Shown here: one piece after another, positions 4,864-53,133 of the stretch
How the letters are laid out: each line of letters starts with the position of its first letter
Position numbering within the stretch: position 1 is the first letter of the stretch
Origin: Patescibacteria group bacterium
Lineage (GTDB): Bacteria; Patescibacteriota; Patescibacteriia; Buchananbacterales; SURF-54
NCBI GenBank assembly: GCA_018818885.1
Contig: JAHIRB010000018.1
Location: forward strand, 5,041 to 69,040
DNA length: 64,000 bases
Direction: 5' to 3'
Position numbers and translations under genes: made by a program
The notes under the pieces: model-generated
Told to the model about the DNA's origin: nothing
The model's database searches: none
Seen by the model: only the letters and a program-made list of their open reading frames with translations

Positions 4864-5124
4864 TTAAAGGTGCGATATTAACAACATTAACCAAGCTGTG
4901 AATACGAAGCGGAATGCCCACATACGATATGATTCTGACTGGGCAATTTCAGCTTTAGCATCTTTGCTGAATTTAATGCCAATTAAGTTGTGATCAGAAA
5001 ATCCTAATGATTCGAGGATTTGAAAGTCACGTGCATTATCCGAATATATTTTGGCTGCAAGCATAGCAAGCAATCCAAGAAATGCAAACATGATTGAGAC
5101 TATCAAATTCCATGTCATTGACAT
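4864..5124 (-). CDS. small 2-TM membrane protein of the SD-bearing small-ORF class
   Basis: 86 aa. AGGGAGGTGA SD 9 nt upstream of the ATG. Hairpin ACTGGGCAA/TTACCCAGT plus T-run terminator downstream on the minus strand (4790-4830). Confidence 0.45.
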   Translation of the reverse strand: MSMTWNLIVSIMFAFLGLLAMLAAKIYSDNARDFQILESLGFSDHNLIGIKFSKDAKAEIAQSESYRMWAFRFVFTAWLMLLISHL

Positions 5125-5251
5125 TATTTGTCACCTCCCTGTTTCGTATAAATTTTTAGTTGTTGGATTTTCTTGATTGAGACATTGATATATTACTATA
5201 TGTGTTAAATAATTTCAAGTCATATATTAGTTATTGATATTATATAGATTT

Positions 5252-7264
5252 ATGGATCAAAAACAACTAGATCAACTTTCCATTAACACAATTCGTTTTT
5301 TAGCAGTAGATGCAGTGCAAAAAGCCAATTCAGGACACCCAGGTTTGCCTATGGGAGCAGCACCAATGGCTTATACTCTTTGGACTAAGTTTTTAAGTCA
5401 TAACCCAAATAATCCCGAGTGGCTAAATCGGGATAGGTTTATTTTGTCTGCTGGGCATGGATCAATGCTGTTATATTCTTTACTCCATTTGACTGGGTAT
5501 GACATACCTTTAAGTCAGATTAAACGATTTCGTCAATGGGATTCTAAAACACCTGGTCATCCTGAATACGAAATTAAATCAGGCATTGAAACTACAACCG
5601 GTCCATTAGGCCAAGGTTTTGGTAATGGAATTGGTATGGCAATAGCGCAAAGGTATTTATCAAACCGATATAACAAGCGTGGATTTAAATTATTTGATTA
5701 TTATATTTACAGTATTGTTTCAGACGGTGATTTAATGGAAGGAGTGTCGTCAGAAACAGCTTCTATGGCTGGTAACTTAAAATTAGGCAAGTTGATATAT
5801 TTATATGATGATAACGACATATCAATTGAAGGATCAACGAACATAACTTTCACAGAAGATGTTGCTACTAGATTTAAGGCATTTGAATGGCACGTTCAAA
5901 AAGTCAATGATGGAAACAATATCAAAGCAATTGAGGGTGCAATAGAAAAAGCAAAAAAGGACAACCGGCCATCCATCATTATTATCAAAACAACAATAGG
6001 TTATGGTAGTCCAAATAAAGCTAATACTGCTTCTGCCCATGGTGAAGCTTTGGGAGAAGAAGAGGTAGAATTAACCAAAGAAAATTTAAACTGGCCAAAG
6101 GAACCAGCATTTTACATTCCAAAAGAAGCTTTAGAACATTTCAGAACAGCAGTAGAAAAAGGTCATAAACAAGAAAAAGAATGGAACGAAATGTTGAAAG
6201 AGTATAAAAAGAAGTATCCTACCTTGGCAAAAGCATTAGTTACTTTAAAACCACAAAGGTTACCAGTTGGTTGGGCAAAAAAACTATCAGAATATTCTGC
6301 AAAAAAAGATCCAGTTGCTACTCGTGTAGTTTCAGGGGAAGTTTTGAATATTTTAGCTAAGTTTTTGCCAAATTTAATTGGAGGTTCTGCAGATCTAGAA
6401 CCATCAAACAAAACTTATCTAAAAGGTAAAGGAGATTTCAGCGCTAAGACAGCTAACAGAGAAACTCACAACTTGCATTTTGGAGTGAGAGAGCACGGCA
6501 TGGCTGCAATTTTAAATGGAATCGCATTGTCAAAACTAGTAATCCCCTATGGCGGAACATTTTTGATATTTTCAGATTACATGCGGCCATCAATTAGGCT
6601 GGCAGCTTTGATGGGGCTACGCGTAGTTTATGTATTTACTCACGATTCTATTGGTTTGGGAGAAGACGGGCCAACACATCAACCAATTGAGCAGTTAATG
6701 GCTTTGCGGGCTATCCCTAATATGACTGTTATACGTCCAGCAGATGCTAACGAAACCGTACAAGCGTGGAAAGTAGCAATAGAAAATACAACAGGCCCAA
6801 CAGCTATATGTCTAACACGTCAAAGTTTACCAATCATTGACCAAAAAACCTACTCGTCAGCCAAGAATTTATCAAAAGGTGCATACATACTTAATCCCAA
6901 AGTAAAAAATCCAGATATTATTCTAATAGCAACAGGATCTGAAGTGCAATTAGCTATGGAAGCATCAGAAAAATTATCCCCCAAAGTCAACGCTAGAGTA
7001 GTAAGCATGCCAAGCTGGGAGTTGTTCGAAAAACAACCACAAAGTTATAAAGATAAAGTTTTACCTCCAGAAGTAAAGTCAAGACTAGCAATTGAAGCAG
7101 GAGTTACGCAGGGTTGGTATAAATATGTTGGCGATAAAGGTGATATTATCGGAATAGATAAATTTGGTGCTTCAGCGCCAGGTAAAGTTGTTATGAAAAA
7201 ATACGGGTTTGGTTTAGCAAATGTTGTAAAAAAAGCCAGAGAGATTATTAAAAAGAATAAATAA
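5252..7264 (+). CDS. tkt: transketolase
   Basis: GHPGLPMGAAPMAYTLW thiamine-diphosphate motif and full-length homology. Start chosen at the internal Met (MDQKQL) by alignment to known Tkt N-termini; the ORF track starts at 5234. Confidence 0.9.
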   Translation: MDQKQLDQLSINTIRFLAVDAVQKANSGHPGLPMGAAPMAYTLWTKFLSHNPNNPEWLNRDRFILSAGHGSMLLYSLLHLTGYDIPLSQIKRFRQWDSKTPGHPEYEIKSGIETTTGPLGQGFGNGIGMAIAQRYLSNRYNKRGFKLFDYYIYSIVSDGDLMEGVSSETASMAGNLKLGKLIYLYDDNDISIEGSTNITFTEDVATRFKAFEWHVQKVNDGNNIKAIEGAIEKAKKDNRPSIIIIKTTIGYGSPNKANTASAHGEALGEEEVELTKENLNWPKEPAFYIPKEALEHFRTAVEKGHKQEKEWNEMLKEYKKKYPTLAKALVTLKPQRLPVGWAKKLSEYSAKKDPVATRVVSGEVLNILAKFLPNLIGGSADLEPSNKTYLKGKGDFSAKTANRETHNLHFGVREHGMAAILNGIALSKLVIPYGGTFLIFSDYMRPSIRLAALMGLRVVYVFTHDSIGLGEDGPTHQPIEQLMALRAIPNMTVIRPADANETVQAWKVAIENTTGPTAICLTRQSLPIIDQKTYSSAKNLSKGAYILNPKVKNPDIILIATGSEVQLAMEASEKLSPKVNARVVSMPSWELFEKQPQSYKDKVLPPEVKSRLAIEAGVTQGWYKYVGDKGDIIGIDKFGASAPGKVVMKKYGFGLANVVKKAREIIKKNK

Positions 7265-7271
7265 ATGAAAA

Positions 7272-7296
7272 AGCCCAAGCGCGAGAGCGTTGGGCT
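7272..7296. terminator. bidirectional hairpin AGCCCAAGCGCGAGAGCGTTGGGCT between tkt and the minus-strand small ORF
   Basis: Perfect 7-bp stem with an A-run upstream and a T-run on the minus strand (rc ...GGGCTTTTTCATTT). Confidence 0.45.
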
Positions 7297-7322
7297 GTCT
7301 TGTCGGATAATTAATTGATTGT

Positions 7323-7541
7323 TTATTGAACGTCGGTAATGATTTGATCTACCTTACCTCTGAATTTGGAGTTTTCGTCCGGTTTATAGTATCTCTCTGC
7401 AACATGTTTGACATAAATGCCAAGGTCATGGACGATAAGTTCAGACAAACATTCCCAGTCTGGAATCTCAATTTCTTCGCTGATTCCCTGGAAAACGAAC
7501 TCATCATTGCGAAATATTGATAGCAATAATCTTATCTTCAT
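7323..7541 (-). CDS. small protein of the SD-bearing small-ORF class
   Basis: 72 aa. GGGAGGGTGG SD 4 nt upstream of the ATG (core GGAGG about 8 nt). Its own terminator is at 7272-7296. Preferred over the overlapping plus-strand ORFs 7326-7520 and 7417-7605, which lack translation signals. Confidence 0.45.
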   Translation of the reverse strand: MKIRLLLSIFRNDEFVFQGISEEIEIPDWECLSELIVHDLGIYVKHVAERYYKPDENSKFRGKVDQIITDVQ

Positions 7542-7615
7542 ATTTCCACCCTCCCTGCAGGACTATGTCAAATTATCTACAACAAGACCCAGTATACTAT
7601 CATAGATACTTAAAA

Positions 7616-8473: not shown

Positions 8474-8560
8474 TACAAATTACGAATGAATACGAATATA
8501 CGAATCACATAATAAAATTAGCATTTGTATATTCGTATCTAATTAGTAATTCGTAATTTT
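8474..8560. repeat. palindromic intergenic repeat, copy A (AATTACGAAT...AATACGAATATACGAAT / ATTTGTATATTCGTAT...ATTCGTAATT)
   Basis: Imperfect inverted repeat of about 85 bp. The same arms recur at 29689-29770 and 42812-42898. Confidence 0.6.
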
Positions 8561-9301: not shown

Positions 9302-9302
9302 A

Positions 9303-10613: not shown

Positions 10614-10709
10614 CTTTCTTATTTTTACAAATTATTTTTTTAGTTAATGATGGGTATGTACTCATTTTTTTCTTTGATACTTTTGTAACCAAAAGTATCC
10701 AAAAGTTTT

Positions 10710-10783
10710 GGGGTGGCGAAACTCGCACTTGCCTATGGGAAGGTGTGAGTATACTTTCCACGGGCTCGGACAGTCGCCACCCC
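10710..10783. other. tRNA-sized (74 nt) GC-rich structured element with a 10-bp terminal helix GGGGTGGCGA/TCGCCACCCC
   Basis: Closing helix plus internal hairpins (GCGAAACTCGC). No T-loop consensus, so not called as a tRNA. Lies just upstream of the corA promoter. Confidence 0.3.
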
Positions 10784-10811
10784 AAACCCCAGTCTTTCTA
10801 AGATATTCTCT

Positions 10812-10840
10812 TGTCAATATTCCCAAAGTATACTACAATG
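10812..10840 (+). promoter_or_regulatory. sigma70-like promoter TTGTCA-17-TACAAT for corA
   Basis: TTGTCA at 10812-10817, 17-nt spacer, TACAAT at 10835-10840. About 38 nt upstream of the corA ATG. Confidence 0.4.
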
Positions 10841-10877
10841 ATAACGTAAAAAATAAAACAGTTGAGGGTATTTTTTT

Positions 10878-11798: not shown

Positions 11799-11804
11799 TT
11801 TAAA

Positions 11805-12254: not shown

Positions 12255-12340
12255 GCGGGTATAGTGGTTTATTGTCACTCTCAGCCGCAGAGAGCGGGTA
12301 TAGTATAATGGCTTATTATGTCAGCCTTCCAAGCTGAAGA
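12255..12340 (+). pseudogene. two truncated 5' copies of tRNA-Gly (through the D-arm and through the anticodon arm)
   Basis: GCGGGTATAGTGGTTTATT... and GCGGGTATAGTATAATGGCTTATTATGTCAGCCTTCCAAGCTGAAG match the downstream tRNA-Gly up to the anticodon stem, then diverge. No T-arm. Confidence 0.45.
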
Positions 12341-12380
12341 TTAAACAATTAAAAAATAATATTTTCATCGTGTATTAAGA

Positions 12381-12453
12381 GCGGGTGTCGTATAGTGGTT
12401 TATTATGTCAGCCTTCCAAGCTGAAGAGGGCGGTTCGATTCCGCTCACCCGCT
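12381..12453 (+). tRNA. tRNA-Gly (anticodon TCC)
   Basis: Acceptor GCGGGTG/CACCCGC, anticodon arm TCAGC-CTTCCAA-GCTGA, T-arm GGCGG-TTCGATT-CCGCT. The flanks extend the acceptor helix to 14 bp (ATTAAGAGCGGGTG...CACCCGCTCTTAAT). Folded by hand. Confidence 0.75.
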
Positions 12454-12542
12454 CTTAATACGGGATTTTGGATTCCCGCCTGCCCCGTAAACGACTCTGA
12501 GTTTATCGAATAGAGTTTTACGGGGTTACCCGCTCCATGATA

Positions 12543-13321: not shown

Positions 13322-13472
13322 ATATTTAATCTTTATATCAGTTTAGCATAATTTTACTAAAATGTCAAGATTTCTGACGAATTTATAAAAAAAAATAGCA
13401 GGTTTTATAAATCTATTGTATGATGCAAAGTTAAAATTAACAGTACATTGAAAACTAAAAATGAGGTAGAAA

Positions 13473-13880
13473 ATGGGTGAGATAATTTTAACAGAAGGCG
13501 AAGAAAACTGTGTAAACAATATAGTTGGCGAGCTATTCTTTCATGTCCGAAAGGGTACGCTCACACACGGTATGGGAAAGGGGGTATTTCAGAGAAACTG
13601 TATTCATGAGATAGACTGCCACTGGTCAGATCGGGGGTGTATCGACATCAGTATGAGCGAATACGTCAGCGAGATTAACACCAACATGCTTTTAATCTTG
13701 TTTGCAGTTGTAAACAAGATTACTGCAAAACACTCAGTGCATGTTAGCCTTAGTTTTCCTTCTTGGGAAGAACTAAATGCTAACAGGTCACAACCTCCAC
13801 CACCAGATACTTTCTGGATGGAAGCGCTTGCCAGTCAGGGAGAGCCTGAACAGGTAACGGAGGAAGATTGGAAGGAATAA
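13473..13880 (+). CDS. Cys/His-rich small protein (SD-bearing small-ORF class), divergent from TrmB paralog 1
   Basis: 135 aa. GAGGT SD. Cys/His cluster (C13, H24, H32, C43, H45, C49, H50, C56). GC-richer than its surroundings. Own terminator at 13911-13948. Confidence 0.45.
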   Translation: MGEIILTEGEENCVNNIVGELFFHVRKGTLTHGMGKGVFQRNCIHEIDCHWSDRGCIDISMSEYVSEINTNMLLILFAVVNKITAKHSVHVSLSFPSWEELNANRSQPPPPDTFWMEALASQGEPEQVTEEDWKE

Positions 13881-14089: not shown

Positions 14090-14485
14090 ATGAAAAAAAT
14101 TTATTTCTTAATATTAATTTTCTTTTTCTTTAACATTATCAATAATGTAGAAGCACTTTTTGTAGATTTTATTGATATGCCGTACAGTCCCGAATATGAG
14201 CATTGTTTTAATAAAGAAGGATACCAGTGTATAGGGATTTATTATGCCAACGGACCTTGCAAAGGCACTGAAGATGTAGATAAGTATTGTATTAAAAAAT
14301 CTGATTCGAAAATTGTGAAATTGTATAAAGAAAAAAAGTTTATGCTAATAAAATTCAAAAATAGGGTTTTTAGTGATATAAAACGCAATCCCGCATCTTC
14401 AGCAGGAATAGCTATTACTATACTATTAGTTATATATTTAATTTTTAGTATCATAAAAAAAAAGTTAAATAAGATAAAAAAATAA
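14090..14485 (+). CDS. hypothetical secreted/membrane-anchored Cys-containing protein
   Basis: 131 aa with a signal peptide, a 6-Cys ectodomain and a C-terminal TM anchor plus K-rich tail. Confidence 0.45.
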   Translation: MKKIYFLILIFFFFNIINNVEALFVDFIDMPYSPEYEHCFNKEGYQCIGIYYANGPCKGTEDVDKYCIKKSDSKIVKLYKEKKFMLIKFKNRVFSDIKRNPASSAGIAITILLVIYLIFSIIKKKLNKIKK

Positions 14486-15978: not shown

Positions 15979-15997
15979 TATCATTGACTAACTCGCT
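15970..15997 (+). repeat. 28-bp direct repeat copy 3 (CAGTTCTAATATCATTGACTAACTCGCT)
   Basis: Overlaps the last codons and stop of the permease gene. 27/28 identical to copy 1. Confidence 0.6.
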
Positions 15998-16200
15998 GTT
16001 TGTATTTATTTTCACCTTCCCCTCCTACACTTCTCGTTTCACTCGAAGTTTTGGAGGGCAGGCAAGTTTACCTGCCGAATCCGCCAGAGGCGGAGAAGGC
16101 AGGCTGAAAATATGGGTTCTGCGCCAGGGGCGCACCAGCCTGGCTGGAATTCCTCTTCACACGCTTTTGACTAGATCATCGCCGAAAGGGTGGTTTTTTA
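15998..16200 (+). other. GC-rich multi-hairpin element (candidate structured RNA or decayed GC-rich repeat) ending in a T-run
   Basis: Consecutive short hairpins CCCTCC..GGAGGG, GGCAGG..CCTGCC, CCGCCAGAGGCGG, TGCGCCAGGGGCGCA and CCAGCCTGGCTGG, then GGGTGGTTTTTT. The ORF 15984-16208 called here is probably spurious. Confidence 0.35.
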
Positions 16201-16240
16201 TTACTTAATAATGAAAAGTTGGAACTATTATAATAATCTA

Positions 16241-16995: not shown

Positions 16996-18321
16996 ATGAA
17001 CAATCATAATAATACTACACAACCATTTACAAAAAGAAAATTTTTGTTTGTTTCCTATGATGCCTTAATTTCTGACGTCGCTTGGCAGGTAATTAAAGAA
17101 GGGCACGAAGCCAAATATTATATCAAACACGAAGAAGATAAAGACATCGCTGACGGTTTTGTACCCAAAGTAGATAATTGGGAGGCAGAAGTTGATTGGG
17201 CAGACATTGTTGTGTTTGATGATGTTTTAGGGATGGGTAGATGGGCAGAAAAATTGAGAAAACAAGGAAAGCTTGTAGTTGGCGGGTCAACCTATACGGA
17301 TAAGCTCGAAGATGACCGTTCTTTTGGCCAAGAAGAACTAAAGAAATTTGGTATCCCAATTATTGCTTATCGAAATTTTACTTCTTTTGACGATGGTATT
17401 GATTTTGTTAGAGAAAATCCAGGAAGGTACGTAGTTAAGCCAAGTGGCGAATCACAAAACGTTAAACTTTATCTTTTTGTCGGACAAGATGAAGATGGCA
17501 AGGATATCATCCAAGTTCTAGAAGCCTACAAAAGGATTGTTGGTAAAAAAATTAGAGAATTTCAATTACAAAAATATGTAACTGGGGTAGAAGTTGGCGT
17601 AGGTGGTTTTTTTAATGGCAATGAATTTGTTTATCCAATAAATATTAATTTTGAACATAAAAAGCTTTTTCCAGGAAATATCGGGCCTTCCACAGGCGAA
17701 ATGGGAACTAGCATGTTTTGGAGTAATGCTAACCGTCTTTATAATGCAACTTTGAAAAAAATGGAAGCTAAATTAGCAGAAGAAAAATATGTTGGCTATT
17801 TTGATTTAAATTGCATTGTCAACAGCCATGGAATATACCCATTAGAATTTACTTCTCGTTTTGGTTATCCAACAATTCATATCCAGCAAGAAGGCATATT
17901 AATGACAATTGCTGATTTTTTATACGGCTTAGCAGATGGTAGCTTAAAAAAGTTTAAAGCAAGAAATGGTTTTCAAGTAGGAATTAGGCTGGTTGTACCA
18001 CCTTTTCCTTATGGAGGGGGAGAAGTAAGCCAAGAAGCTAGTTCCAAAGACACAGTTATACTTTTTAAAAAACCAAATTTAGAAGGAATCCGAATTGAAG
18101 AAACAAAATTAATCAATGGTGAATGGGTAGTGGCCGGAACTTATGGTGTGGTGTTGGTTGTAGTTGGTTGTGGACCAACCATGAAGCAAGCACAACGCCA
18201 AGCATATACTAGAATGAAAAATATTGCCATACCTAATATGTATTATAGAACAGATATTGGCGACCGTTGGTTCGAAGACAGTGATAAGCTACATAACTGG
18301 GGATATTTGAGAGAATTATGA
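16996..18321 (+). CDS. purD: phosphoribosylamine--glycine ligase (PurD)-like ATP-grasp enzyme
   Basis: GNIGPSTGEMGT aligns to PurD DTGPNTGGMGAY. The C-terminal GVVLVVVGCGPTMKQAQRQAYTRMKNIAIPNMYYRTDIG aligns to PurD GRVLCVTALGHTVAEAQKRAYALMTDIHWDDCFCRKDIG. No other pur genes in the window. Confidence 0.65.
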   Translation: MNNHNNTTQPFTKRKFLFVSYDALISDVAWQVIKEGHEAKYYIKHEEDKDIADGFVPKVDNWEAEVDWADIVVFDDVLGMGRWAEKLRKQGKLVVGGSTYTDKLEDDRSFGQEELKKFGIPIIAYRNFTSFDDGIDFVRENPGRYVVKPSGESQNVKLYLFVGQDEDGKDIIQVLEAYKRIVGKKIREFQLQKYVTGVEVGVGGFFNGNEFVYPININFEHKKLFPGNIGPSTGEMGTSMFWSNANRLYNATLKKMEAKLAEEKYVGYFDLNCIVNSHGIYPLEFTSRFGYPTIHIQQEGILMTIADFLYGLADGSLKKFKARNGFQVGIRLVVPPFPYGGGEVSQEASSKDTVILFKKPNLEGIRIEETKLINGEWVVAGTYGVVLVVVGCGPTMKQAQRQAYTRMKNIAIPNMYYRTDIGDRWFEDSDKLHNWGYLREL

Positions 18322-19226
18322 TAATAAAAAAAATAACTGACATTAAAGATTGCCAGCGTATCTGGCAACTTTTTTCACCCAAAGATACCCTTTGGGATTT
18401 ATGGGAATTAGTTGAATCAATATATAATCCAAAGATTCATTCTCCCTTATTTTTAGTTGGTGTAAGAGGTGGTAAAGAAACTGGACTTTTACCTTTGTGG
18501 TTTGATAAATCTCAAAAAGTTTATTATTCTTTTGGCGGATCAATTTGTGAATTCAGGGATTTTTGGTTTGGGCCACAAGATTTTCCATTTTATTTTGAAA
18601 AAATCCCAACTCCAATATTGATAAATGATATTGATGCAGTTTCGGTTGAACAAATCTTAAAAGTGAATCCAGATTATCGTAAATATTTTTTTGAAATTGA
18701 TAATAAATACATTCTTAATTTTAAAGAAATAAATTACAGTTTAGAAGGATTTTATAAACGCTTTACACCAAAACATAGAAAAAATTTAAAGTATGATATA
18801 AAGAAACTTGACAGTTTAAAATATGTTATAAAATGGGAAAAATTTAACCACTTTGATTTAATGATACAATTTAATAAAAACCGTTTTGGTGTGGAATCAA
18901 ATTTTGAAGATATCAATAATATAGATGAACTCAAAAAATTACTTCAGTTTTTTTCAGATAAAAAATGGCTACATACTTTATCCGTTAACATAGATAATAA
19001 AGTACAGGCTATTGAATATGCTGCTTTTTATAATCATACCTATTATGTCATTAATGGTGGTTTTAATCATAAGTATAAAAATTTTGGTAAATTAGTGTTG
19101 ATTGAGCATATTAAAAATGCAATGGAGTTAAAAGCTGATATAGTTGATTTTATGGTTGGAGATAGTGGCTGGAAAGAATTATGGAATTTAGATAAATTAC
19201 CGTGTTATTCCCTGAATAAAGACTAA
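18318..19226 (+). CDS. hypothetical protein, possibly FemAB/GNAT (Acetyltransf_6)-like, in an operon with the PurD-like gene
   Basis: 302 aa with a 4-bp ATGA overlap with the upstream gene. Only weak resemblance to the peptidyl-transferase/GNAT fold; family not securely recognised. Confidence 0.3.
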   Translation: MIIKKITDIKDCQRIWQLFSPKDTLWDLWELVESIYNPKIHSPLFLVGVRGGKETGLLPLWFDKSQKVYYSFGGSICEFRDFWFGPQDFPFYFEKIPTPILINDIDAVSVEQILKVNPDYRKYFFEIDNKYILNFKEINYSLEGFYKRFTPKHRKNLKYDIKKLDSLKYVIKWEKFNHFDLMIQFNKNRFGVESNFEDINNIDELKKLLQFFSDKKWLHTLSVNIDNKVQAIEYAAFYNHTYYVINGGFNHKYKNFGKLVLIEHIKNAMELKADIVDFMVGDSGWKELWNLDKLPCYSLNKD

Positions 19227-27207: not shown

Positions 27208-27236
27208 TTGACGTATTTTAATGGGTATGATAAATT
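27208..27236 (+). promoter_or_regulatory. candidate promoter TTGACG-17-TAAATT upstream of the riboswitch-like leader
   Basis: TTGACG at 27208-27213, 17-nt spacer, TAAATT at 27231-27236. The -10 element is weak. Confidence 0.35.
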
Positions 27237-27261
27237 ATGTTTAACCTTACAATTTCATAGG

Positions 27262-27400
27262 TTATTTAGAGAGCTACATGCTATCCAGCCTCTCTCGAGA
27301 AGCTGGATTAAAGGGAAATGGCCCGAAGGTAGCCAGCAACTCTCTTCGATATTATATCGGGGGCAAGAGTGCTAATTCCACCCATAAAAGGGAAAGATAA
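27262..27400 (+). promoter_or_regulatory. candidate SAM-I (S-box) riboswitch aptamer
   Basis: AAGGGAAATGGCCCGAAGGTAGCCAGCAAC matches S-box GGAGGGAcUGGCCCGAUGAAACCCGGCAACC. A P4-like hairpin CTCTTCGATATTATATCGGGGGCAAGAG follows, then an exact GUGCUAAUUCC block. The P1 helix could not be verified by hand. Confidence 0.5.
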
Positions 27401-27435
27401 CGTTGTATGTCGTGCCAAATACGATGTAGACAAAA

Positions 27436-27471
27436 AACTCTTAAAAATCTTTCTGTTTTGAGAGTTTTTTG
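27436..27471 (+). terminator. intrinsic terminator AACTCTTAAAA...TTTTGAGAGT plus T6 (riboswitch expression platform)
   Basis: 10-bp stem with one G-U pair followed by TTTTTTG. A second hairpin, GCCTTCC-TTTTG-GAAAGGC plus T-run, follows at 27493-27518. Confidence 0.5.
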
Positions 27472-27563: not shown

Positions 27564-27839
27564 ATGGCAAATGCATGGAGGGAAGCACAACAGGCGCTTG
27601 AAACAGAACTCAAGAAAGCTCAAAAAAAGGGCATAGCACGAGGAAAGACCATCCGTGATTTTGTGATCATGGTTGATGGTGACCAGCTCTGCCTGGGCGT
27701 GCTTACCGGTAAATTGCTCAACAATGAGAGAGAAGTAAAGAGGTACCCTGACATTGAAGGGATTAAGAATGAAGTCAGTTCAGAGTCTTACCCTACAGAT
27801 GGGGTACGGTTTATGTCCATGGCTGGTTACGACGTTTAA
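27564..27839 (+). CDS. small protein of the SD-bearing small-ORF class, downstream of the SAM-I-like leader
   Basis: 91 aa. GGAAGGAGGA SD 8 nt upstream of the ATG. GC-richer. Its own strong terminator follows. Confidence 0.5.
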   Translation: MANAWREAQQALETELKKAQKKGIARGKTIRDFVIMVDGDQLCLGVLTGKLLNNEREVKRYPDIEGIKNEVSSESYPTDGVRFMSMAGYDV

Positions 27840-30643: not shown

Positions 30644-30985
30644 ATGAACAAAGACGAGTTAAGCAATTCTTTAGCTGATAAAATTGGTATAACCAAAAAA
30701 CAGGCTTTAGATGCTCTAGATTACTTAACTGAAACAATTACAAGCACCATTAAAGATGGTGGCGATGTTACCTTGACTGGCTTTGGTACTTTTTCAGCAC
30801 GCCAAAGAAAGGGTCGTATTGGAGTAAATCCTCGTAATATTTCAGAAAAAATTGAAATTCCGTCAGTTTTAGTAGCAAAATTCAAAGCTGGAAAAAATTT
30901 AAAGGAAGCTTTGAAATCAAGTGGTTCTAGTAGTTCAGAAAGCGTATCCGAAAGTACCGAAGAGGCTTCCCCAACAGAAGAGTAA
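30644..30985 (+). CDS. hup: DNA-binding protein HU with a Ser/Glu-rich C-terminal extension
   Basis: MNKDELSNSLADKIGITKKQA...GFGTFSARQRKGRIGVNPRN HU/IHF signature. Strong GGAGG SD 8 nt upstream, so start set at 30644 rather than 30635. Confidence 0.85.
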   Translation: MNKDELSNSLADKIGITKKQALDALDYLTETITSTIKDGGDVTLTGFGTFSARQRKGRIGVNPRNISEKIEIPSVLVAKFKAGKNLKEALKSSGSSSSESVSESTEEASPTEE

Positions 30986-32869: not shown

Positions 32870-33130
32870 ATGTACAAAACAATAGGGGCTTCATTATTAG
32901 CATTTCAAATGGGTATGGTGTTTAATGTCGAACTGTTTCATAAAAAGACAGGAGTGTGGCTTGATAGTCTTGAACAAATCGATGAATACCGATCCGGACT
33001 GAAAGTTGAGGAAAGATGTTACTTCGACGTATTCGTAATCCAGAAGAGAGCTCAAATTGATGTGTTAGGACTTGAAGAAGACGAAGTGAAAAAAGTTTTT
33101 CAAGTCATAAAGGCTTGTTTTTCAAAATAA
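32870..33130 (+). CDS. small protein of the SD-bearing small-ORF class
   Basis: GGGAGG SD at 32854-32859. The ATG at 32870 has the best spacing; the ORF track's longer 32846 start was rejected. About 86 aa. Confidence 0.4.
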   Translation: MYKTIGASLLAFQMGMVFNVELFHKKTGVWLDSLEQIDEYRSGLKVEERCYFDVFVIQKRAQIDVLGLEEDEVKKVFQVIKACFSK

Positions 33131-33181: not shown

Positions 33182-33610
33182 ATGCCAAAGAAGGAGTCAA
33201 AGTTTAAGGACTGGGGCGTACAACCACATCAGGGTATGAGACACAATTGGGACGTAACTAGTTGCCCACATTGTAATCATGATTTTAATCAATATAGGAT
33301 GTTGTATTGTAGATTCATAGTAGGATTCACTACGAAAGAAGAATATAGAAGGCCTACATACGATGGGACAAAAATTGTAGGATTTTATGCAGAGGGAGCT
33401 GTTATTTTAGAATGTCCAAAATGTTTTGAGCATTCATGGATTCACAGTTGTGGCACTACCAGGCAGTTATTTGATGCGACAGAAGATGACGATAATTTCC
33501 TTTTAGTCCCTGGAGCAAAGGAGGCTTTTTTGAGAAGTGTAAAGAAAAAGTCGAAAAAGAAACCGACCAAAAAAAAGCTAAAGAAAAAATTGGTTAAGAA
33601 GAAGAATTAA
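33182..33610 (+). CDS. zinc-ribbon small protein with a Lys-rich tail (SD-bearing small-ORF class)
   Basis: CPHCNH...CPKC four-Cys ribbon and a C-terminal KKKSKKKPTKKKLKKKLVKKK. GGAGA SD 7 nt before ATG 33182; a GTG start at 33158 is also possible. Confidence 0.45.
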   Translation: MPKKESKFKDWGVQPHQGMRHNWDVTSCPHCNHDFNQYRMLYCRFIVGFTTKEEYRRPTYDGTKIVGFYAEGAVILECPKCFEHSWIHSCGTTRQLFDATEDDDNFLLVPGAKEAFLRSVKKKSKKKPTKKKLKKKLVKKKN

Positions 33611-37293: not shown

Positions 37294-37322
37294 TTGACAA
37301 GTATGACATTTTTTAATAAGGT
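37294..37322 (+). promoter_or_regulatory. promoter-like TTGACA-17-TAAGGT upstream of the three-gene small-ORF operon
   Basis: Identical hexamers and spacing recur at 52699-52727. Confidence 0.4.
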
Positions 37323-37349: not shown

Positions 37350-37568
37350 ATGCCTACATATATAGCATTTGAGATAATACAAGAAGGAGGTATGGCAGCA
37401 GAAATAATCGATAAAGCAGATAGTATAATGGAAGCGGTTCAAAGAACCAAAGTAGTTCGGCTTTATGCAGTCAAACTGTTGGGTGATTGTCCTGGACATG
37501 ATTTTATGCCAGCACAAAGTGATTGTGGAATCACAGAATTTTGTCAGATTTGCGCAGAGATCAGATAA
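37350..37568 (+). CDS. small Cys/His protein with one copy of a CPxH...CxICxE domain
   Basis: 72 aa. AAAGGGGGT SD 5 nt upstream. VKLLGDCPGHDF...EFCQICAEI. Confidence 0.5.
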   Translation: MPTYIAFEIIQEGGMAAEIIDKADSIMEAVQRTKVVRLYAVKLLGDCPGHDFMPAQSDCGITEFCQICAEIR

Positions 37569-37587: not shown

Positions 37588-37953
37588 ATGAATGGCAAAA
37601 ATCTTGAACTTCAAAACCAGAATGAGAACATAAAACATGCGGGTTGGTGGGGCATAGCCTCATGTCTTATTTTCTCAGCAGCATTGTTGTATTATATTTT
37701 TGCTCTTATATTTAATATACTCTCGGTTTTTGAAGCAAGAGAGGAAGGGCAATATTATACAGCTTATGCTATTTTGTTTGCCATCTTCTTTTTACTCGGT
37801 TGGGTAATCAGTATGATTGGCACAGTTGTTGGATTCTATGGATTGTGTCAGAGTCACAGGAAAAAAATGTTTGCCGTTATTAGTACAATTCTCAACTCGT
37901 TGATTTTTTGGGGAACTATCGTACTATTTTATTGGGCGTCGAAGTTCAACTAA
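37588..37953 (+). CDS. small 4-TM membrane protein, middle gene of the operon
   Basis: GGGGGG SD. About 121 aa with four hydrophobic helices. Confidence 0.45.
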   Translation: MNGKNLELQNQNENIKHAGWWGIASCLIFSAALLYYIFALIFNILSVFEAREEGQYYTAYAILFAIFFLLGWVISMIGTVVGFYGLCQSHRKKMFAVISTILNSLIFWGTIVLFYWASKFN

Positions 37954-37970: not shown

Positions 37971-38387
37971 ATGCCAGAATTTAGTGTTCATGTAGTGTTG
38001 AGCGCAAGTACATTTAAGAATGCATTAAAAATGGCCATTCGTGACGGTTGTCCTGGCGCTCCCGAAGTCGTGATAATTGGAGGATGCCCAGATCACAAAA
38101 TCGAACCTCCAGAACCATCTGCACCATATTCCTTAGAGTTGTCTTTTTGCCGGATATGCGGCGAAAGAAGCATGAGTGATAATCCAATGCACGTATATCA
38201 AGCAGAACGAGAAGACAACGTGCGTAGTATCGGCGCACACTCTTTCAGAGATGCTGTGGAAACAGCGAAAGTCGCATTGGGAGGATCTGTTGAGGTAAAA
38301 CTCGTAGGAAAATGCCCCAAGCATAAGTTCGTACACTTGGATGCTCCGATTAACGAGGTTTGCGAAATTTGCGGGCACATGCAGTAG
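37971..38387 (+). CDS. small Cys/His protein with two tandem CPxH...CxICxE domains
   Basis: 138 aa. AAGGAGGAG SD 6 nt upstream. IIGGCPDHKI...FCRICGE and LVGKCPKHKF...VCEICGH repeat the domain of ORF 37350. Confidence 0.5.
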   Translation: MPEFSVHVVLSASTFKNALKMAIRDGCPGAPEVVIIGGCPDHKIEPPEPSAPYSLELSFCRICGERSMSDNPMHVYQAEREDNVRSIGAHSFRDAVETAKVALGGSVEVKLVGKCPKHKFVHLDAPINEVCEICGHMQ

Positions 38388-38419: not shown

Positions 38420-38459
38420 ATCAACGTTTTGGCCTGGGGTGTTGTTTTTGACCTCCCCC
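38420..38459 (+). terminator. intrinsic terminator CCCCAGG...CCTGGGG plus TGTTGTTTTT
   Basis: 7-bp GC stem and a T-rich tail ending the three-gene operon. Confidence 0.5.
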
Positions 38460-38608
38460 TGTCCTCCCCCTCGAAGAGGGGGAGGGACTCGTTTAAGTAT
38501 GTAATGTGTAAAAATAATGTCTGACTACTACAAACTTACAAACATCCTTAACCGAGTTCCCCCTCCTTTATAAGGAGGGGGACAGGGGGAGGTCAAAATA
38601 CAAAAAGC
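38456..38608. mobile_element. MITE-like element with perfect 17-bp terminal inverted repeats (TTTTGACCTCCCCCTGT / ACAGGGGGAGGTCAAAA)
   Basis: Each terminal repeat abuts an internal C8/G8 hairpin (CCTCCCCC-TCGAAGA-GGGGGAGG and CCCCCTCC-TTTATAA-GGAGGGGG). About 70 bp of AT-rich core. No ORF. Confidence 0.35.
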
Positions 38609-47025: not shown

Positions 47026-47040
47026 ATAAAACATCATTAT

Positions 47041-48003: not shown

Positions 48004-48103
48004 CATATATCTTTAGATTATTATAAACACCAGGTTAGTTCCTGGTGTTTTTACTTGTAAGAATTACTAAAAAAAACTATAATTAAAGTAAGTATAATAA
48101 TAT

Positions 48104-49834: not shown

Positions 49835-49846
49835 ATCAACTAAAAA

Positions 49847-49877
49847 AACACCTTGATAGTTTATAGGTGTTTTTTGT
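49847..49877 (+). terminator. intrinsic terminator AACACC-TTGATAGTTTATA-GGTGTT plus T6
   Basis: A-run, 6-bp stem, TTTTTTG. Confidence 0.5.
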
Positions 49878-49945
49878 ATTGAGGGATTGACATATAAATG
49901 ATATTTTGATAAGATTTTTTTGCGCGTTTAGAGAGGGGTGGAAAA

Positions 49946-50302
49946 TTGAAAAGCCAGAGTACAAAGAAGAAAGTGTCGAAGCGAATGATAAGAGTCTTAA
50001 CTTTAAGTAATATTCTTAAATTATTTCCCAAAACTCCAGAAGGCAGAAGGGCTAAGAATGCATTTCTGCAGCATTGTAAAAACTATTACCTTGAGAGAAA
50101 AAGGATGGAACAAGATCAGATTGCTAATCAAGAAACAAAAAATCCACAACGTGCAATATATCATGGACAAATTATGTCAATATTTGCATTATTACGACTA
50201 GTGCCCGGTGCAGAAAAAAAATGTCCTGCCTATAGCAAGGATCAAGTCGGTGATGCAGTAATGAAATGGTTTGCTATCAATGGCTCAGTAGATTCAAGCT
50301 GA
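49946..50302 (+). CDS. small basic protein, paralog of the convergent gene 50294-50803
   Basis: 118 aa. TTG start with a GAGGGGTGG SD. Shares FPKTPEGRRAKNAFLQHCKNYYLE with FPNTKDGRAAKDNFLKLCREYMEE of the partner. Confidence 0.4.
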   Translation: MKSQSTKKKVSKRMIRVLTLSNILKLFPKTPEGRRAKNAFLQHCKNYYLERKRMEQDQIANQETKNPQRAIYHGQIMSIFALLRLVPGAEKKCPAYSKDQVGDAVMKWFAINGSVDSS

Positions 50303-50803
50303 GCCATTCTTTTTTTTAGAATTTTTGTCTTTTTGTATCTCTTTTGCTAAGTCGGGATCAACAAACATTTCATCTTCCTTTATTCTATTATATACACCAT
50401 TTTTATTTGTTTTACCAAAATCTACAACTTTAAAATATCTATCTAATATTTCTGTAATATAATTTTTATCTCCAAGTCTTGAAAATAATTCAATATTACT
50501 TACTCTACTTGAGGTAGATAATTTACCAATAATACTACGGATATCATTATGCTTTGCTGCGCGTTGTTTTCCATGATGTTGTAAGCTACCACTAACACTT
50601 TGTCTTTTTTGTGCGGCAACTTCTTCCATGTATTCTCTACATAGTTTTAAGAAATTATCTTTTGCGGCTCTACCATCTTTAGTATTGGGAAAGTTATCTA
50701 GTAAAGCATCCATATCAGCAATAGGTAGTTCAGGATTTAGATTTCTTAGATCAACAAATTCTTGAGGAGGGGGTTGTGGTATTTGTTCGAGTCTTCTAGC
50801 CAT
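50294..50803 (-). CDS. hypothetical protein, paralog of 49946-50302; last gene of the tsaE transcription unit
   Basis: 169 aa. Start 3 nt after the tsaE stop. 9-bp convergent 3' overlap with its paralog. Confidence 0.45.
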   Translation of the reverse strand: MARRLEQIPQPPPQEFVDLRNLNPELPIADMDALLDNFPNTKDGRAAKDNFLKLCREYMEEVAAQKRQSVSGSLQHHGKQRAAKHNDIRSIIGKLSTSSRVSNIELFSRLGDKNYITEILDRYFKVVDFGKTNKNGVYNRIKEDEMFVDPDLAKEIQKDKNSKKKNGSA

Positions 50804-50806
50804 ATA

Positions 50807-51259
50807 TTAAGTAATATTAATAATTCTTGTATTTTGATTATTTCCCAACTCTAACAAAATTTTCTTAGTTTGTCTAGGAAGGATTTTTTTTATTTTTTCT
50901 GCCCATTCGATCACTACAACAGTATTTTTATCTCCAAAATATTCATCTGCACCAATATCAACAATTTCTTGTGGAGATTTAGTTCTGTAACAATCGATAT
51001 GAACAAATTGACGAATGTAAATCACGCCTCGGCGAGACGCCTTCGGCGAATTAACTTGGTATACTTTCATCAACACAAAAGTAGGGCTGGTAATTATTTT
51101 TTTTATTCCTAAACCTTGCGCGATGCCTTTGATCAACGTGGTCTTCCCTGCACCCAAATCTCCTGTTAAAGCCAAAACTTCGCCATCCTTAAGACCGCTT
51201 GCAATTTTTTTACCTAAAGCTATTGTCTGTTTTTCTGATGTAGTAATATGTTTTGACAT
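50807..51259 (-). CDS. tsaE: tRNA threonylcarbamoyladenosine biosynthesis protein TsaE
   Basis: Walker A LTGDLGAGKTTL. 150 aa. Confidence 0.8.
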   Translation of the reverse strand: MSKHITTSEKQTIALGKKIASGLKDGEVLALTGDLGAGKTTLIKGIAQGLGIKKIITSPTFVLMKVYQVNSPKASRRGVIYIRQFVHIDCYRTKSPQEIVDIGADEYFGDKNTVVVIEWAEKIKKILPRQTKKILLELGNNQNTRIINIT

Positions 51260-51281
51260 ATTTAATTATATTTGGTAAATT
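51253..51281 (+). promoter_or_regulatory. candidate promoter TTGACA-17-TAAATT for ORF 51323
   Basis: TTGACA at 51253-51258 (overlapping the tsaE start codon on the other strand), TAAATT at 51276-51281. Confidence 0.3.
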
Positions 51282-51322
51282 ATTGTAATCAGGAGGGGAT
51301 ATAAAACCAAAGGAGGCAACAA

Positions 51323-51619
51323 ATGGGAACTGAACAGGTAGTAACTTGCCAGCCACTTCCGACCTCATATGTGGGTCATGGCATGAAAACATTGAAAGCC
51401 CAGATGGCACTCATCAAAGAAGCAGTAGAACAACAGAACAAGGGCATAAGAGGTTGTCAATTTGAAGGTGTTGCAGTTCTCCAAGTCTCTATTGATGGCA
51501 ACTGCCCAAATCCAGATTGTGGCTCATCGAATATTAATTCGCACAAAGCCCCGGCGGAATTTGGATTGGATGCCAGAAGATGTAAATGCAACGATTGCAG
51601 AACAGTTTTTAATTTTTAA
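51323..51619 (+). CDS. zinc-ribbon small protein (SD-bearing small-ORF class) inserted between tsaD and tsaE on the opposite strand
   Basis: 98 aa. AAAGGAGG SD 6 nt upstream. NCPNPDCGS...CKCNDCRTVF. Confidence 0.5.
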   Translation: MGTEQVVTCQPLPTSYVGHGMKTLKAQMALIKEAVEQQNKGIRGCQFEGVAVLQVSIDGNCPNPDCGSSNINSHKAPAEFGLDARRCKCNDCRTVFNF

Positions 51620-51632
51620 CACTAGAATAATT

Positions 51633-52679
51633 CTAGTTCGGTTCAACTTTGACTTCACTCCACGGGGTGAAATCTTTTTTTAGTATTTTAAAATATGCTG
51701 CTGCAGCAATTATAGCAGCATTATCTGTACAAAGATTAAACGATGGGATCAGCAAGTCAACATTTACATTCTTTTTCATTTCATTGCGAAGTAATTTATT
51801 AGCAGTAACTCCACCGCCTAGTAAAATTGTTTTTACTTTATATTTTGTAGCAGCATCAATAGTTTTTTTAACTAGTACGTCAACTACTGCTTTTTCAAAG
51901 CTAGCAGCTATGCCAGTCTTTTGTTTTACAGACAATTTTTTTAAGCCTCTTACTTTATATAGAACAGAAGTTTTTATCCCAGAAAAGGAAAAGTTGAAGT
52001 CTTTAGAATTAATCATACCGCGCGGAAAATCAAAAGCATCTGGTTTACCCTTTGTCGCCATTTTAGATATCACGGGGCCTCCAGGGTAGCCTAGGTTTAA
52101 TATTTTAGCAACTTTATCAAACGCTTCGCCAGCTGCATCGTCTAAAGTCTGGCCAATGTTTTTAAAACTGAATTTATCTTTCATGTAGATTAGTTCTGTG
52201 TGTCCGCCTGATACGATTAGTCCTATTGACGGGAATTTGATGGGTAGATCGGGCGCCTCTGCCCGATCGTTGCGATGGGACGCAGGGGCCCCTCCCACCC
52301 CACTAGGTAGCCAATTAGCATAAATATGTGCTTTTAAGTGGTTGACTGTTATTAGTGGTTTTTTCCAAACATAAGAAAGTACTTTAGCAGTTTCAGTGCC
52401 AACCAATAACGACGTTATTAAGCCAGGCTTATTGGTCACAGCAATATAATCAATTTTTTTTTGATTAACTTTGGCTTTAATCAAAGCTTGATTTAGAACT
52501 GGTAGCATGTTTTTTAAGTGATTTCTGGCTGCAACTTCTGGCACAATACCACCAAACTTCGCGTGAATCGCGATTTGAGAAGAAACAACATTACTAAGAA
52601 TTTTAAAATTGCCACGGTCAACTTTTATAACCGCGACGGCAGTTTCGTCACATGATGTTTCAATTCCTAAAATAATCAT
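51633..52679 (-). CDS. tsaD: tRNA N6-adenosine threonylcarbamoyltransferase TsaD
   Basis: MIILGIETSCDETAVAV, HxxxH metal motifs, 348 aa. The ATG lies 6 nt after a TATAAT, consistent with a near-leaderless mRNA. Confidence 0.9.
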   Translation of the reverse strand: MIILGIETSCDETAVAVIKVDRGNFKILSNVVSSQIAIHAKFGGIVPEVAARNHLKNMLPVLNQALIKAKVNQKKIDYIAVTNKPGLITSLLVGTETAKVLSYVWKKPLITVNHLKAHIYANWLPSGVGGAPASHRNDRAEAPDLPIKFPSIGLIVSGGHTELIYMKDKFSFKNIGQTLDDAAGEAFDKVAKILNLGYPGGPVISKMATKGKPDAFDFPRGMINSKDFNFSFSGIKTSVLYKVRGLKKLSVKQKTGIAASFEKAVVDVLVKKTIDAATKYKVKTILLGGGVTANKLLRNEMKKNVNVDLLIPSFNLCTDNAAIIAAAAYFKILKKDFTPWSEVKVEPN

Positions 52680-52698
52680 ACAAATGTATTATAGCATA

Positions 52699-52727
52699 TT
52701 GACATTTTCATAAATAACTAGTAAGGT
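52699..52727 (+). promoter_or_regulatory. promoter-like TTGACA-17-TAAGGT upstream of ORF 52762
   Basis: Same hexamers and spacing as 37294-37322. Confidence 0.4.
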
Positions 52728-52761
52728 TTGCATACAAAACTAAAAAGGAGGGGAAAGACTG

Positions 52762-53133
52762 ATGACAAAAGATCGTCGGATATTCGGTACCAAAAAAACA
52801 AAAGTTTTACTGAAGGACGTCAAGAAGGGAGACACAATTGAGATACGAGTGCCTGTAGAAGACACTGAAACTGCTTTTGTCAAACCCGACGACAAGTCCT
52901 ACTGGATTGGCCTGGAGGTGATCACAGTAGTTGAAGGTATGATCAATGCCAAGATTGTCGAACCAGACGAGGTCAAAAGCGGATGCGAAGCCAATGTGTG
53001 GTTTCCAGAAGTTGAAGTAGGTGAACCCCTTAACTTATCTTGGACGCATGAAGTGTCGGAAGATATCGCATTCAGGATTCAGTCTGTCAACGAAATACTG
53101 CTCATTTCATTCAAAGAAGCAAAAGTCGGGTGA
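52762..53133 (+). CDS. small acidic protein of the SD-bearing small-ORF class
   Basis: 123 aa. AAAAAGGAGGGG SD 8 nt upstream. Terminator hairpin GAGGCGC...GCGCCTC at 53151-53186. Confidence 0.45.
   Translation: MTKDRRIFGTKKTKVLLKDVKKGDTIEIRVPVEDTETAFVKPDDKSYWIGLEVITVVEGMINAKIVEPDEVKSGCEANVWFPEVEVGEPLNLSWTHEVSEDIAFRIQSVNEILLISFKEAKVG

Follow-up and report, generated by a model that had tools for sequence, protein, structure and literature searches.

Small-protein genes with strong Shine-Dalgarno sites in intergenic slots of a Shine-Dalgarno-poor Patescibacteria genome

Introduction

The Patescibacteria, or Candidate Phyla Radiation (CPR), represent a large share of bacterial diversity, and little is known of how their genes are expressed. 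This report concerns a 64,000-nucleotide stretch of one such genome (GenBank contig JAHIRB010000018.1, positions 5,041 to 69,040; the whole of this stretch is called the window) and twelve small open reading frames (ORFs) that lie scattered among its housekeeping genes. A preliminary description, made from the sequence alone, had proposed that these ORFs form a class distinguished by strong Shine-Dalgarno (SD) sites and raised G+C content, and that they are autonomous, moron-like cassettes of foreign or specialised origin. All twelve exist at the coordinates given, and public assemblies of this strain include a gene call for each; the NCBI annotation of those looked up is hypothetical protein throughout.

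The window is contained in ENA ERZ27247128 k141_1529105, and copies of the strain at about 100% identity are found in three other assemblies and in an NCBI metagenome-assembled genome (locus tags KKA15_). Comparison of PilT puts the organism close to Candidatus Buchananbacteria and to other Parcubacteria, with 76% PilT identity to the best species-level relative and mostly 65-70% to the others. Contigs or loci of related genomes are designated by L-numbers (L010, L090, L145 and so on) and homologous proteins by P-numbers. The backbone of the PilT region is strongly syntenic in the relatives, running IF2-RbfA-DHH-ClpP-[gap]-RNase Y-YmdB-HU and, further along, PilT-RNase III-NusB-L32-[gap]-GyrA.

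Shine-Dalgarno sites at the small open reading frames

The reference gene set comprised 70 public gene calls with Pfam matches, from position 3473 to 64000 of the window. Each start was scored by the hybridisation energy of the 20 nt before it with a canonical 16S tail, and sites with ΔG ≤ -11.8 kcal/mol were taken as strong. The energies are sharply bimodal: ten of the 70 called genes fall between -11.8 and -22.0 kcal/mol, and all other called starts are weaker than -9. The strong group consists of the gene for HU (Bac_DNA_binding; 30644-30985 (+), SD AAGGGAGGTGG, ΔG -22.0) and ORFs 4864 (-), 7323 (-), 27564, 32870, 37350, 37588, 37971, 51323 and 52762, and the spacer from box to start is 5-10 nt in every strong case. 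It had been claimed that all twelve small ORFs carry a canonical box; this holds for the nine just named, and for ORF 49946 if a TTG start is used, but not for ORF 13473 (GAGGT, ΔG -7.2) or ORF 33182 (GGAG). The further claims that housekeeping genes start without an SD and that HU is the only conserved gene with a comparable one were confirmed, HU being the sole annotated strong-SD gene of the 70 scored and L32, S1, IF2, ClpP and FtsH being among the weak starts.

Strong sites are confined to small genes (10 of 31 genes of at most 160 aa versus 0 of 39 larger ones; Fisher p=1e-4) and concentrated on hypothetical ones (9 of 19 versus 1 of 51 annotated genes; p=1e-5). A strong SD followed by a start and an ORF of at least 70 aa occurs 14 times in the window, versus 0.19 expected from dinucleotide shuffles, and in a motif scan nearly all intergenic GGAGG or GGGGG boxes with a start at 3-12 nt and a long ORF belonged to the small-ORF set or HU.

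Related lineages are likewise SD-poor, with a strong SD on 4.2% of 1010 ORFs from 74 related loci; among conserved ORFs 15 (2.8%) have one, HU accounting for six of them. The six relatives with a strong site 5' of HU are L012, L014, L016, L017, L018 and L020. A canonical anti-SD, GGATCACCTCCTTTCT, is present at the 16S 3' end that opens a contig of the relative L030 (PilT 65% identical). The SD is retained in every orthologous small ORF examined while the proteins diverge to 40-70% identity: strong boxes are kept in the orthologues P0029, P0040, P0019 and P0020, and near-threshold boxes in P0021 (-9.3) and P0022 (-9.1).

Promoters, terminators and apparently leaderless core genes

In twelve core genes a TATAAT-like -10 hexamer ends 5-12 nt before the ATG, an arrangement of the leaderless type. 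These are Tkt (start at 5252), Tal (7616), the gene at 14090, ArsB (14593), AAA_33, DHH (25324), a CDP-OH transferase, FtsH (45193), TsaE (51259 (-)), TsaD (52679 (-)), DNA_alkylation and an ECF sigma factor. Other core genes have short AU-rich leaders without an SD, and operon-internal core genes also have none. The pattern would imply that leaderless mRNAs are widespread in this Parcubacteria lineage.

The exact promoter form TTGACA-N17-TAnnnT occurs 12 times in the window, versus 1.1 expected. Five of the small ORFs had been credited with such a promoter; it was found before four, and the remaining copies precede housekeeping genes, so that the cassettes appear to use the host's ordinary promoter type. 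The description of a hairpin and T-run at the ends of most units proved accurate, since, with HU counted in the SD set, eight of the nine genes that close a unit are followed by such a terminator.

The sequence AACTAAAAA is present in 14 copies in the window versus 5.1 expected (for example 5153 (-), 13453 (+), 38401 (+), 49838 (+) and 52738 (+)), and about half of them lie in leaders or just 3' of small-ORF cassettes. As a common upstream motif of the cassettes it was rejected, the enrichment being mild and not specific to them.

Organisation of the units

The operon divergent from rpmF, in the gap between rpmF and gyrA, contains three of the ORFs. Its promoter (TTGACA-17-TAAGGT, 37294-37322) precedes ORF 37350 (37350-37568 (+); SD ΔG -15.9), the first gene, whose 72-aa product has a CPxH...CxxC domain. 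ORF 37588 (37588-37953 (+), 121 aa) is led by a GGGGGG box (ΔG -12.0), and its hydrophobic product, on reading the sequence, is apparently a multi-pass membrane protein. ORF 37971 (37971-38387 (+), 138 aa; SD ΔG -13.6, G+C 0.46) carries two copies of the CPxH...CxxC domain, representing a tandem duplication of that of ORF 37350, and ends in a strong terminator. The relative L090 (L32 96% identical) has the orthologous 37350/37971 operon next to L32, with promoter, SD and terminator conserved. The 37350 orthologue there, P0029, is 48% identical and led by AAGGAGG, the 37971 orthologue is 51% identical and its terminator 91% conserved, and the membrane gene 37588 is missing.

Between operon terminator and gyrA terminator lies a palindrome resembling a miniature inverted-repeat transposable element (MITE; 38446-38598, no strand assigned), rich in CCTCC/GGAGG, with 57-nt inverted arms that are 81% complementary, a CCTCCCCC/GGGGGAGG hairpin in each arm and a fold z-score of -10. 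The corresponding site in L090 lacks it, and it thus behaves like a MITE; a second copy was not noticed in the window, in which no dedicated copy search was made.

A second operon is divergent from a TrmB-family regulator (PF01978; 31985-32752 (-)). It begins with ORF 32870 (32870-33130 (+), 86 aa; SD AGGGAGGT, spacer 10, ΔG -13.3) and continues with ORF 33182 (33182-33610 (+)), which encodes 142 aa with a four-Cys Zn-ribbon and a Lys-rich tail, has the weak GGAG box mentioned above and is followed by a terminator. The family of ORF 33182 is marked by the motifs WGxQP, CPxC, VGF, ECPxCFE, H and VPGAxEAF; an alignment of 22 sequences of about 120 aa has W11, G12, C28, C31, G48, C78, C81 and H88 conserved, and an AlphaFold2 (AF2) model reaches a mean predicted local distance difference test score (pLDDT) of 86.7. 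In this family, as in the CPxH...CxxC proteins, the Cys/His patterns of the presumed Zn ligands are conserved. Members are divergent from TrmB in the window and also in four contexts elsewhere (L091, L150/L151, L152-L154), the contigs L149 and L155 being too short upstream to judge, and TrmB orthologues of 51-60% identity adjoin them in L091, L150/L151 and L152. The genes usually lie inside an operon of several small hypothetical genes with strong or near-threshold SDs, flanked by core genes with none. Operons of this kind at L152 4200-6002 and L150 2872-4552 consist of four or five small hypothetical genes, of which most have an SD-like box; in L152 all five have such a box (three strong, two near -9) and the flanking genes none. 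ORF 33182 and its relatives would represent a new Zn-ribbon family linked to TrmB.

Another family, characterised by a GWIQNNN motif and a membrane anchor at the N-terminus, recurs in the L152 and L150 operons (L152 h120/h125, L150 h123). The L150 contig (JGI Ga0216259_102484) has L31-RF1-PrmC at both ends in inverted orientation and looks like a palindromic assembly artefact, so that its outer parts are doubtful.

ORF 13473 (13473-13880 (+); GC3, the G+C content of third codon positions, 0.44) is divergent from a second TrmB paralogue (PF01978; 12596-13321 (-)), which has a promoter TTGACA-N17-TAAACT at 13340-13368 (-). It encodes a Cys/His-containing protein of 135 aa and is followed by a terminator; an alternative product of 75 aa from the internal ATG at 13653, the NCBI start, is preceded by a strong GGGGGTG box. 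Given its position, ORF 13473 perhaps belongs with the TrmB-linked group.

The gap between clpP and rny (RNase Y) is 1-2 kb long in all relatives. In the window it holds a divergent SAM-I (S-adenosylmethionine) riboswitch aptamer (27261-27401 (+)) with a promoter TTGACG-17-TATGAT at about 27209-27237 and a terminator at 27431-27470. ORF 27564 (27564-27839 (+), 91 aa; SD GGAAGGAGG, spacer 8, ΔG -16.2, GC3 0.47, strong terminator) starts 162 nt after the aptamer and has no promoter of its own. Autonomy, which had been proposed for every unit, does not extend to this one; lacking a promoter and lying behind a riboswitch, it is probably expressed by read-through. Because of a 29-nt insertion in P2 the window aptamer scores 22.6 bits against RF00162, below the gathering threshold of 44.4, which the syntenic copy in L011 exceeds (46.3 bits). 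The element is conserved in 10 relatives by nhmmer and keeps its syntenic position in at least eight relatives, and a four-helix consensus over eight genomes has 29 pairs, 11 of them with compensatory changes. In these eight genomes an SD-led ORF of 55-167 aa always begins 122-204 nt after the aptamer, with rny further downstream. At least three unrelated groups are represented among the downstream ORFs (Zn-ribbon proteins, the ORFs of L018 and L020, and singletons, of which ORF 27564 is one), and hhalign gave no support for homology between ORF 27564 and the L018/L020 ORFs. In L020 the SAM riboswitch is separated from clpP by a T-box leader (18066-18380 (-), 126.7 bits), which indicates that this gap accumulates different regulatory RNAs.

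The remaining units are single genes. ORF 4864 (4864-5124 (-), 86 aa; SD GGGAGGTG, spacer 9, ΔG -16.6) lies between rpe and tkt on the opposite strand, has its own terminator and encodes two hydrophobic segments; like ORF 37588, it perhaps looks like a gene for a small membrane protein. ORF 7323 (7323-7541 (-)), encoding an acidic protein of 72 aa (SD GGGAGGG, ΔG -11.8), lies between tkt and tal, again on the opposite strand and with a terminator. ORF 49946 (49946-50302 (+)), encoding a basic protein of 118 aa, follows a promoter TTGACA-17-TAAGAT at 49887-49915 and is convergent and overlapping with the next gene; its SD, GAGAGGGGTGG (ΔG -16.0), is found only with the TTG start, the publicly called ATG at 49985 having none. 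ORF 51323 (51323-51619 (+), 98 aa; SD ΔG -12.1, promoter TTGACA-17-TAAATT) encodes a C-terminal Zn-ribbon motif, CPNPDC...CKCNDC. ORF 52762 (52762-53133 (+), 123 aa; SD AAAGGAGGGG, ΔG -13.3, GC3 0.46, promoter TTGACA-17-TAAGGT) is divergent from tsaD; an AF2 model from an alignment of two sequences had a pLDDT of 41 and was unusable.

Variability of the intergenic slots

The preliminary description had placed the small ORFs between unrelated housekeeping genes, and this was upheld: the flanking genes tkt, tal, clpP, rny, rpmF, gyrA, tsaD and tsaE stand in conserved synteny. Comparison with relatives, which it had proposed, showed that a given slot may be empty, may bear an orthologue or may be filled by an SD-led ORF of no relation. 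In seven relatives the gap between L32 and GyrA is only 40-60 nt, and in L010 (GyrA 82%) it is occupied by an unrelated SD-led ORF of 75 aa on the opposite strand. Between TsaD and TsaE, the unit of ORF 51323 is a clean insertion of 373 nt, from TsaD stop to TsaE start, relative to the sister species L145, in which the two genes abut; they are adjacent in L096 and L098 as well, and in L093/L094 the slot is taken by an unrelated gene on the opposite strand, SD-led, about 101 aa long and followed by its own terminator. The slot between TsaD and the DNA-alkylation-repair gene contains an orthologue of ORF 52762 in L145 (P0040, 71% identity; SD ΔG -16.3, GC3 0.46 versus 0.30 for TsaD), and in L092 (TsaD 82%) an unrelated SD-led ORF of 103 aa with its own terminator; the flanks of the L092 slot can be aligned with those in the window but the interior cannot. 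These comparisons show cassettes that appear to have been gained, lost or replaced among relatives.

Composition and coding status

The small ORFs differ from the other genes in G+C content (0.404 versus 0.334) and in GC3 (0.378 versus 0.249; Mann-Whitney p=3e-5), and the GC3 excess holds against other small genes as well (p=2e-4). The G+C content of 40-47% originally given for them is true of the set on average and of five ORFs, at 43-46%; seven of the twelve have whole-gene values of 36-38%, and the GC3 of ORF 37350 is an ordinary 0.23. The distinct use of G/C-ending codons was confirmed (chi-square p=2e-24), as was the Cys-rich character of the proteins (Cys 2.9% versus 0.7%, a four-fold enrichment). 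Translational selection as the cause of the raised GC3 was rejected, because HU and L32 have low GC3.

Raised G+C does not hold as a property of the class, because the slot ORFs of the relatives L092, L093 and L010 match their host genomes, and in relatives the SD-led orphans have a mean GC3 excess of +0.046, which is not significant. The five window ORFs at 43-46% resemble G+C-richer Parcubacteria relatives (42-46%). With the slot ORFs of relatives being host-like, the higher values in the window are in keeping with import from Parcubacteria of higher G+C content, and horizontal gene transfer among Patescibacteria is reported as frequent (PMC12455944).

G+C content by codon position in the small ORFs is coding-like (GC1/GC2/GC3 = 0.50/0.35/0.38). 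The ratio of nonsynonymous to synonymous substitution rates (dN/dS) is 0.16 for ORF 52762, next to 0.11-0.13 for TsaD and TsaE, 0.39 for ORF 37350 and 0.46 for ORF 37971. Wherever an orthologue was compared, then, coding sequence is conserved in relatives (dN/dS 0.16-0.46) and the SD kept, and the small ORFs are best regarded as genuine protein-coding genes. Several of the units are long-resident and under purifying selection rather than recent arrivals.

Homology searches

A concatenated query of ten ORFs, all except 37588 and 49946, was run with HMMER against 1.84 billion cluster representatives. It returned relatives for only two, ORF 33182 (about 22 proteins, 31-45% identity) and ORF 37350 (one, 48%). 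Since this library collapses relatives above 50% identity, ORFs 27564, 52762 and 37971 were followed up by other routes. A look-up among 5.8 billion 90%-clusters, which sees only relatives above 90% identity and covered all ORFs except 49946 and 52762, showed ORF 27564 to be a strict singleton and ORF 7323 a singleton cluster. Relatives at 50-90% identity were looked for in the cases of ORFs 52762 and 27564; the former has one relative only, the 71% orthologue P0040. The 37971 orthologue (51% identity) was located by synteny. For six of the ten ORFs (27564, 4864, 7323, 13473, 32870 and 51323) the searches covering them revealed no relatives, ORF 4864 having no homologue beyond its own cluster.

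Scans of Pfam, PHROGs and PADLOC, with ORFs 37588 and 49946 compared to Pfam only, gave no match above threshold; the sole sub-threshold Pfam listing was IBR for ORF 51323 (E=0.083, 13.4 bits versus a cut-off of 24.3). No match was obtained for the ORFs tested by tblastn against 50,697 phage and 72,556 plasmid records, for four ORFs scanned against IMG/VR, or for the twelve ORFs by tblastn against 80 PilT-centred loci of related genomes. The Pfam-based gene tables of the window contain no integrase, transposase or phage structural gene. Within the set only ORFs 37350 and 37971 are related, which rules out a single protein family and removes the suggestion that the ORFs form one family or one system. 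The set is better described as at least a TrmB-linked operon, an rpmF-divergent operon, a riboswitch ORF and several singletons.

Other elements in the window

Besides the MITE-like palindrome, three elements had been put forward as possibly unannotated, and none of the four is a known RNA as judged by Rfam. A G+C-rich element of about 80 nt at 10705-10790, with a 13-bp closing helix (z -4.7 (+)), lies between the pgi terminator region and the corA promoter and has no Rfam or tRNA match. The G+C-rich hairpin cluster at 15990-16209 (z -2 to -3) lies between arsB and a DUF6364/YafQ toxin-antitoxin pair; a 34-nt piece of it has matches of 85% identity at two places in L013, which points to a dispersed family of palindromic repeats. 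The spacer at 53134-53299, beyond ORF 52762, has further hairpins besides a GGAGGCGC...GCGCCTC hairpin that is shared as a terminator for both directions; in L145 the spacer is of equal length and cannot be aligned.

A tRNA-like sequence at 12294-12367 (+) (26 bits versus a gathering threshold of 29) lies directly 5' of tRNA-Gly (12381-12454) and may be a degenerate tandem copy. At 58876-59184 (-) a hypothetical protein of 102 aa has a near-threshold match to T4SS_pilin (PF18895; 24.7 versus 26.6 bits).

Interpretation

The account that we favour, with a confidence somewhat better than even, is that the small ORFs are fast-evolving genes and belong to a flexible pool, of rapid turnover, of SD-dependent small-protein cassettes occupying recurrent intergenic slots in a genome whose core genes lack SDs; the cassettes would be moron-like in form and not derived from phages. 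Core genes would initiate without an SD, many on leaderless mRNAs and others on short AU-rich leaders, and HU and about ten small genes would be translated from leaders of 20-40 nt by pairing of SD and anti-SD, the SD recruiting ribosomes to these leadered, G+C-richer mRNAs. Cassettes may be gained or swapped by recombination among Parcubacteria via the conserved flanking genes, and the five ORFs of 43-46% G+C may have retained the base composition of donors richer in G+C. The proteins are predicted to be small nucleic-acid- or protein-binding Zn-ribbon factors together with small membrane proteins. The suggestions of foreign origin and of autonomy made in the preliminary description survive in part. 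Atypical composition and gain or loss favour the former, but several units are conserved with their SDs, under purifying selection, in sister species; most units do have the structure of promoter, SD, ORF and terminator expected of autonomous cassettes, the exception being the riboswitch-dependent ORF 27564.

Several observations weigh against this account. Neither a donor of any cassette nor a signature of insertion (repeats, integrase) was found, and swapping by recombination is therefore something we infer. The orthologous pair of ORF 52762 keeps a GC3 of 0.46 despite a synonymous divergence (dS) above 1, which means that its G+C content could be selected rather than a relic of transfer. 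Orphan ORFs in relatives are only modestly enriched in strong SDs (5.9% versus 2.8% of conserved ORFs; p=0.03), so that their high density in the window may be a peculiarity of this lineage. The anti-SD motif is reported to be missing from about half of Parcubacteria (PMC9297842), and the 16S gene of this genome lies outside the window. Transcription starts, and hence leader lengths, are predictions from sequence. Seven of the twelve ORFs were searched only where relatives below 50% or above 90% identity are visible.

It is conceivable, though in our judgement unlikely, that the SD is instead a regulatory device and not a by-product of where the genes came from, the anti-SD being kept for the privileged or conditional translation of HU and of small effector or regulatory proteins as one tier of a two-tier system. 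The Bacteroidota, where only a few genes such as rpsU use an SD, offer an analogy. The recurrence of the strong HU site in six relatives, the persistence of SDs in all orthologous small ORFs examined despite protein identities of 40-70%, the SD-like boxes throughout the TrmB operon of L152 with none in its flanks, the SD-led ORF that follows the riboswitch in eight genomes whatever its family, and the canonical anti-SD retained in an SD-poor relative all agree with such an arrangement. Yet there is no evidence of conditional anti-SD availability and no known mechanism of anti-SD masking in CPR bacteria, the presumably abundant L32, S1, IF2, ClpP and FtsH lack SDs, and neither a function nor a family unites the SD-led set. 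A related and equally tentative proposal is that the retained anti-SD serves a separate tier for HU and for exchanged small, often Zn-ribbon, proteins located in conserved regulatory slots, namely the SAM-I riboswitch, the TrmB-divergent promoters and the promoters divergent from rpmF or tsaD. If this were true, translation would start by one mechanism for the core proteome and by another for the accessory proteome, and any small gene that was imported could be expressed once it had brought or acquired an SD.

That the ORFs are remnants or cargo of SD-using CPR phages, plasmids or integrative elements would account for the promoter-ORF-terminator architecture, the atypical G+C and the insertion/deletion polymorphism, and a MITE-like element adjoins one operon. 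CPR phages are also poorly sampled. Even so, the ORFs tested matched nothing in the phage and plasmid records, PHROGs, PADLOC or IMG/VR, and no gene for an integrase, a transposase or a phage structural protein is listed in the gene tables. Housekeeping genes in conserved synteny make up the flanks, the cassettes share the host's TTGACA-N17-TAnnnT promoter type, and several units are stably inherited under purifying selection. We consider an origin of this kind quite improbable, and the moron-like label of the preliminary description, in so far as it means phage-derived, finds no support, no phage, plasmid or defence homology having emerged in the searches made. Less credible still is the notion that the ORFs are spurious or newly born, chance reading frames in G+C-richer intergenic RNAs or terminators in which GGAGG belongs to RNA structure. 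G+C-richer DNA does have fewer stop codons, GGAGG also occurs inside hairpins (at 53150 and in the MITE-like element), and six of the ten ORFs searched are without a homologue in the searches covering them. Against this stand the 14 SD-led ORFs where 0.19 are expected in shuffles, the coding-like codon positions, dN/dS values well below 1 wherever an orthologue exists, the fact that the ORFs fill the space from SD to terminator, and the conserved Cys/His ligand patterns; for ORFs 33182, 37350, 37971 and 52762 the notion is largely refuted.

The window presents a clean split, at the level of sequence, between an SD-independent core and SD-dependent accessory small genes, and this split makes the role of the anti-SD in an SD-poor CPR bacterium directly testable. 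Concrete hotspots have been identified at which small orphan genes would be gained or swapped in streamlined genomes, and the analysis has brought out a conserved TrmB-linked Zn-ribbon family and a SAM-I riboswitch with a variable orphan-ORF cargo.

Comparison with known systems

The riboswitch resembles SAM-I (RF00162) in its four-helix aptamer, in the cores GGCCC, AGCAAC and GUGCUAA and in the terminator that follows. SAM-I riboswitches usually have genes of methionine (Met) or SAM metabolism as their cargo. Here the cargo is a variable SD-led small ORF with no Met/SAM gene, which is atypical; control by SAM is predicted from the aptamer, and SAM-dependent expression would provide an experimental handle.

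Like the morons of phages, the units are small ORFs or mini-operons of atypical composition that have their own promoter and terminator, lie between conserved neighbours and are present or absent in relatives; the backbone here is a cellular chromosome and not a prophage, however, and one unit depends on a riboswitch. The cassettes of integrons are also small, often orphan ORFs that serve as exchangeable units, whereas those described here are dispersed and have their own promoters and rho-independent terminators; the Pfam tables of the window show no integrase, and attC sites were not searched for.

The distribution of SDs is reminiscent of the Bacteroidota, in which most genes have no SD and a handful a strong one. 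A canonical anti-SD was seen here in a relative, the strong sites belong to HU, a conserved and abundant protein, and to orphan small ORFs rather than to rpsU, and many core genes appear leaderless. The combination of leaderless-type promoters with SD-led genes in one genome is shared with the 'group C' genomes of GeneMarkS-2 and with mycobacteria (PMC6028130, PMC4633059), although most leadered and operon-internal genes use an SD there and the small orphans do so here. Leaderless transcripts and small proteins are both reported as common features of mycobacteria (PMC4633059).

Replacement-type flexible genomic islets have the same plan of conserved flanks with unrelated genes at one slot. The cassettes of the window differ from them in being tiny, at 0.3-1.3 kb and one to three genes, and in being united by a strong SD rather than by a function such as glycosylation.

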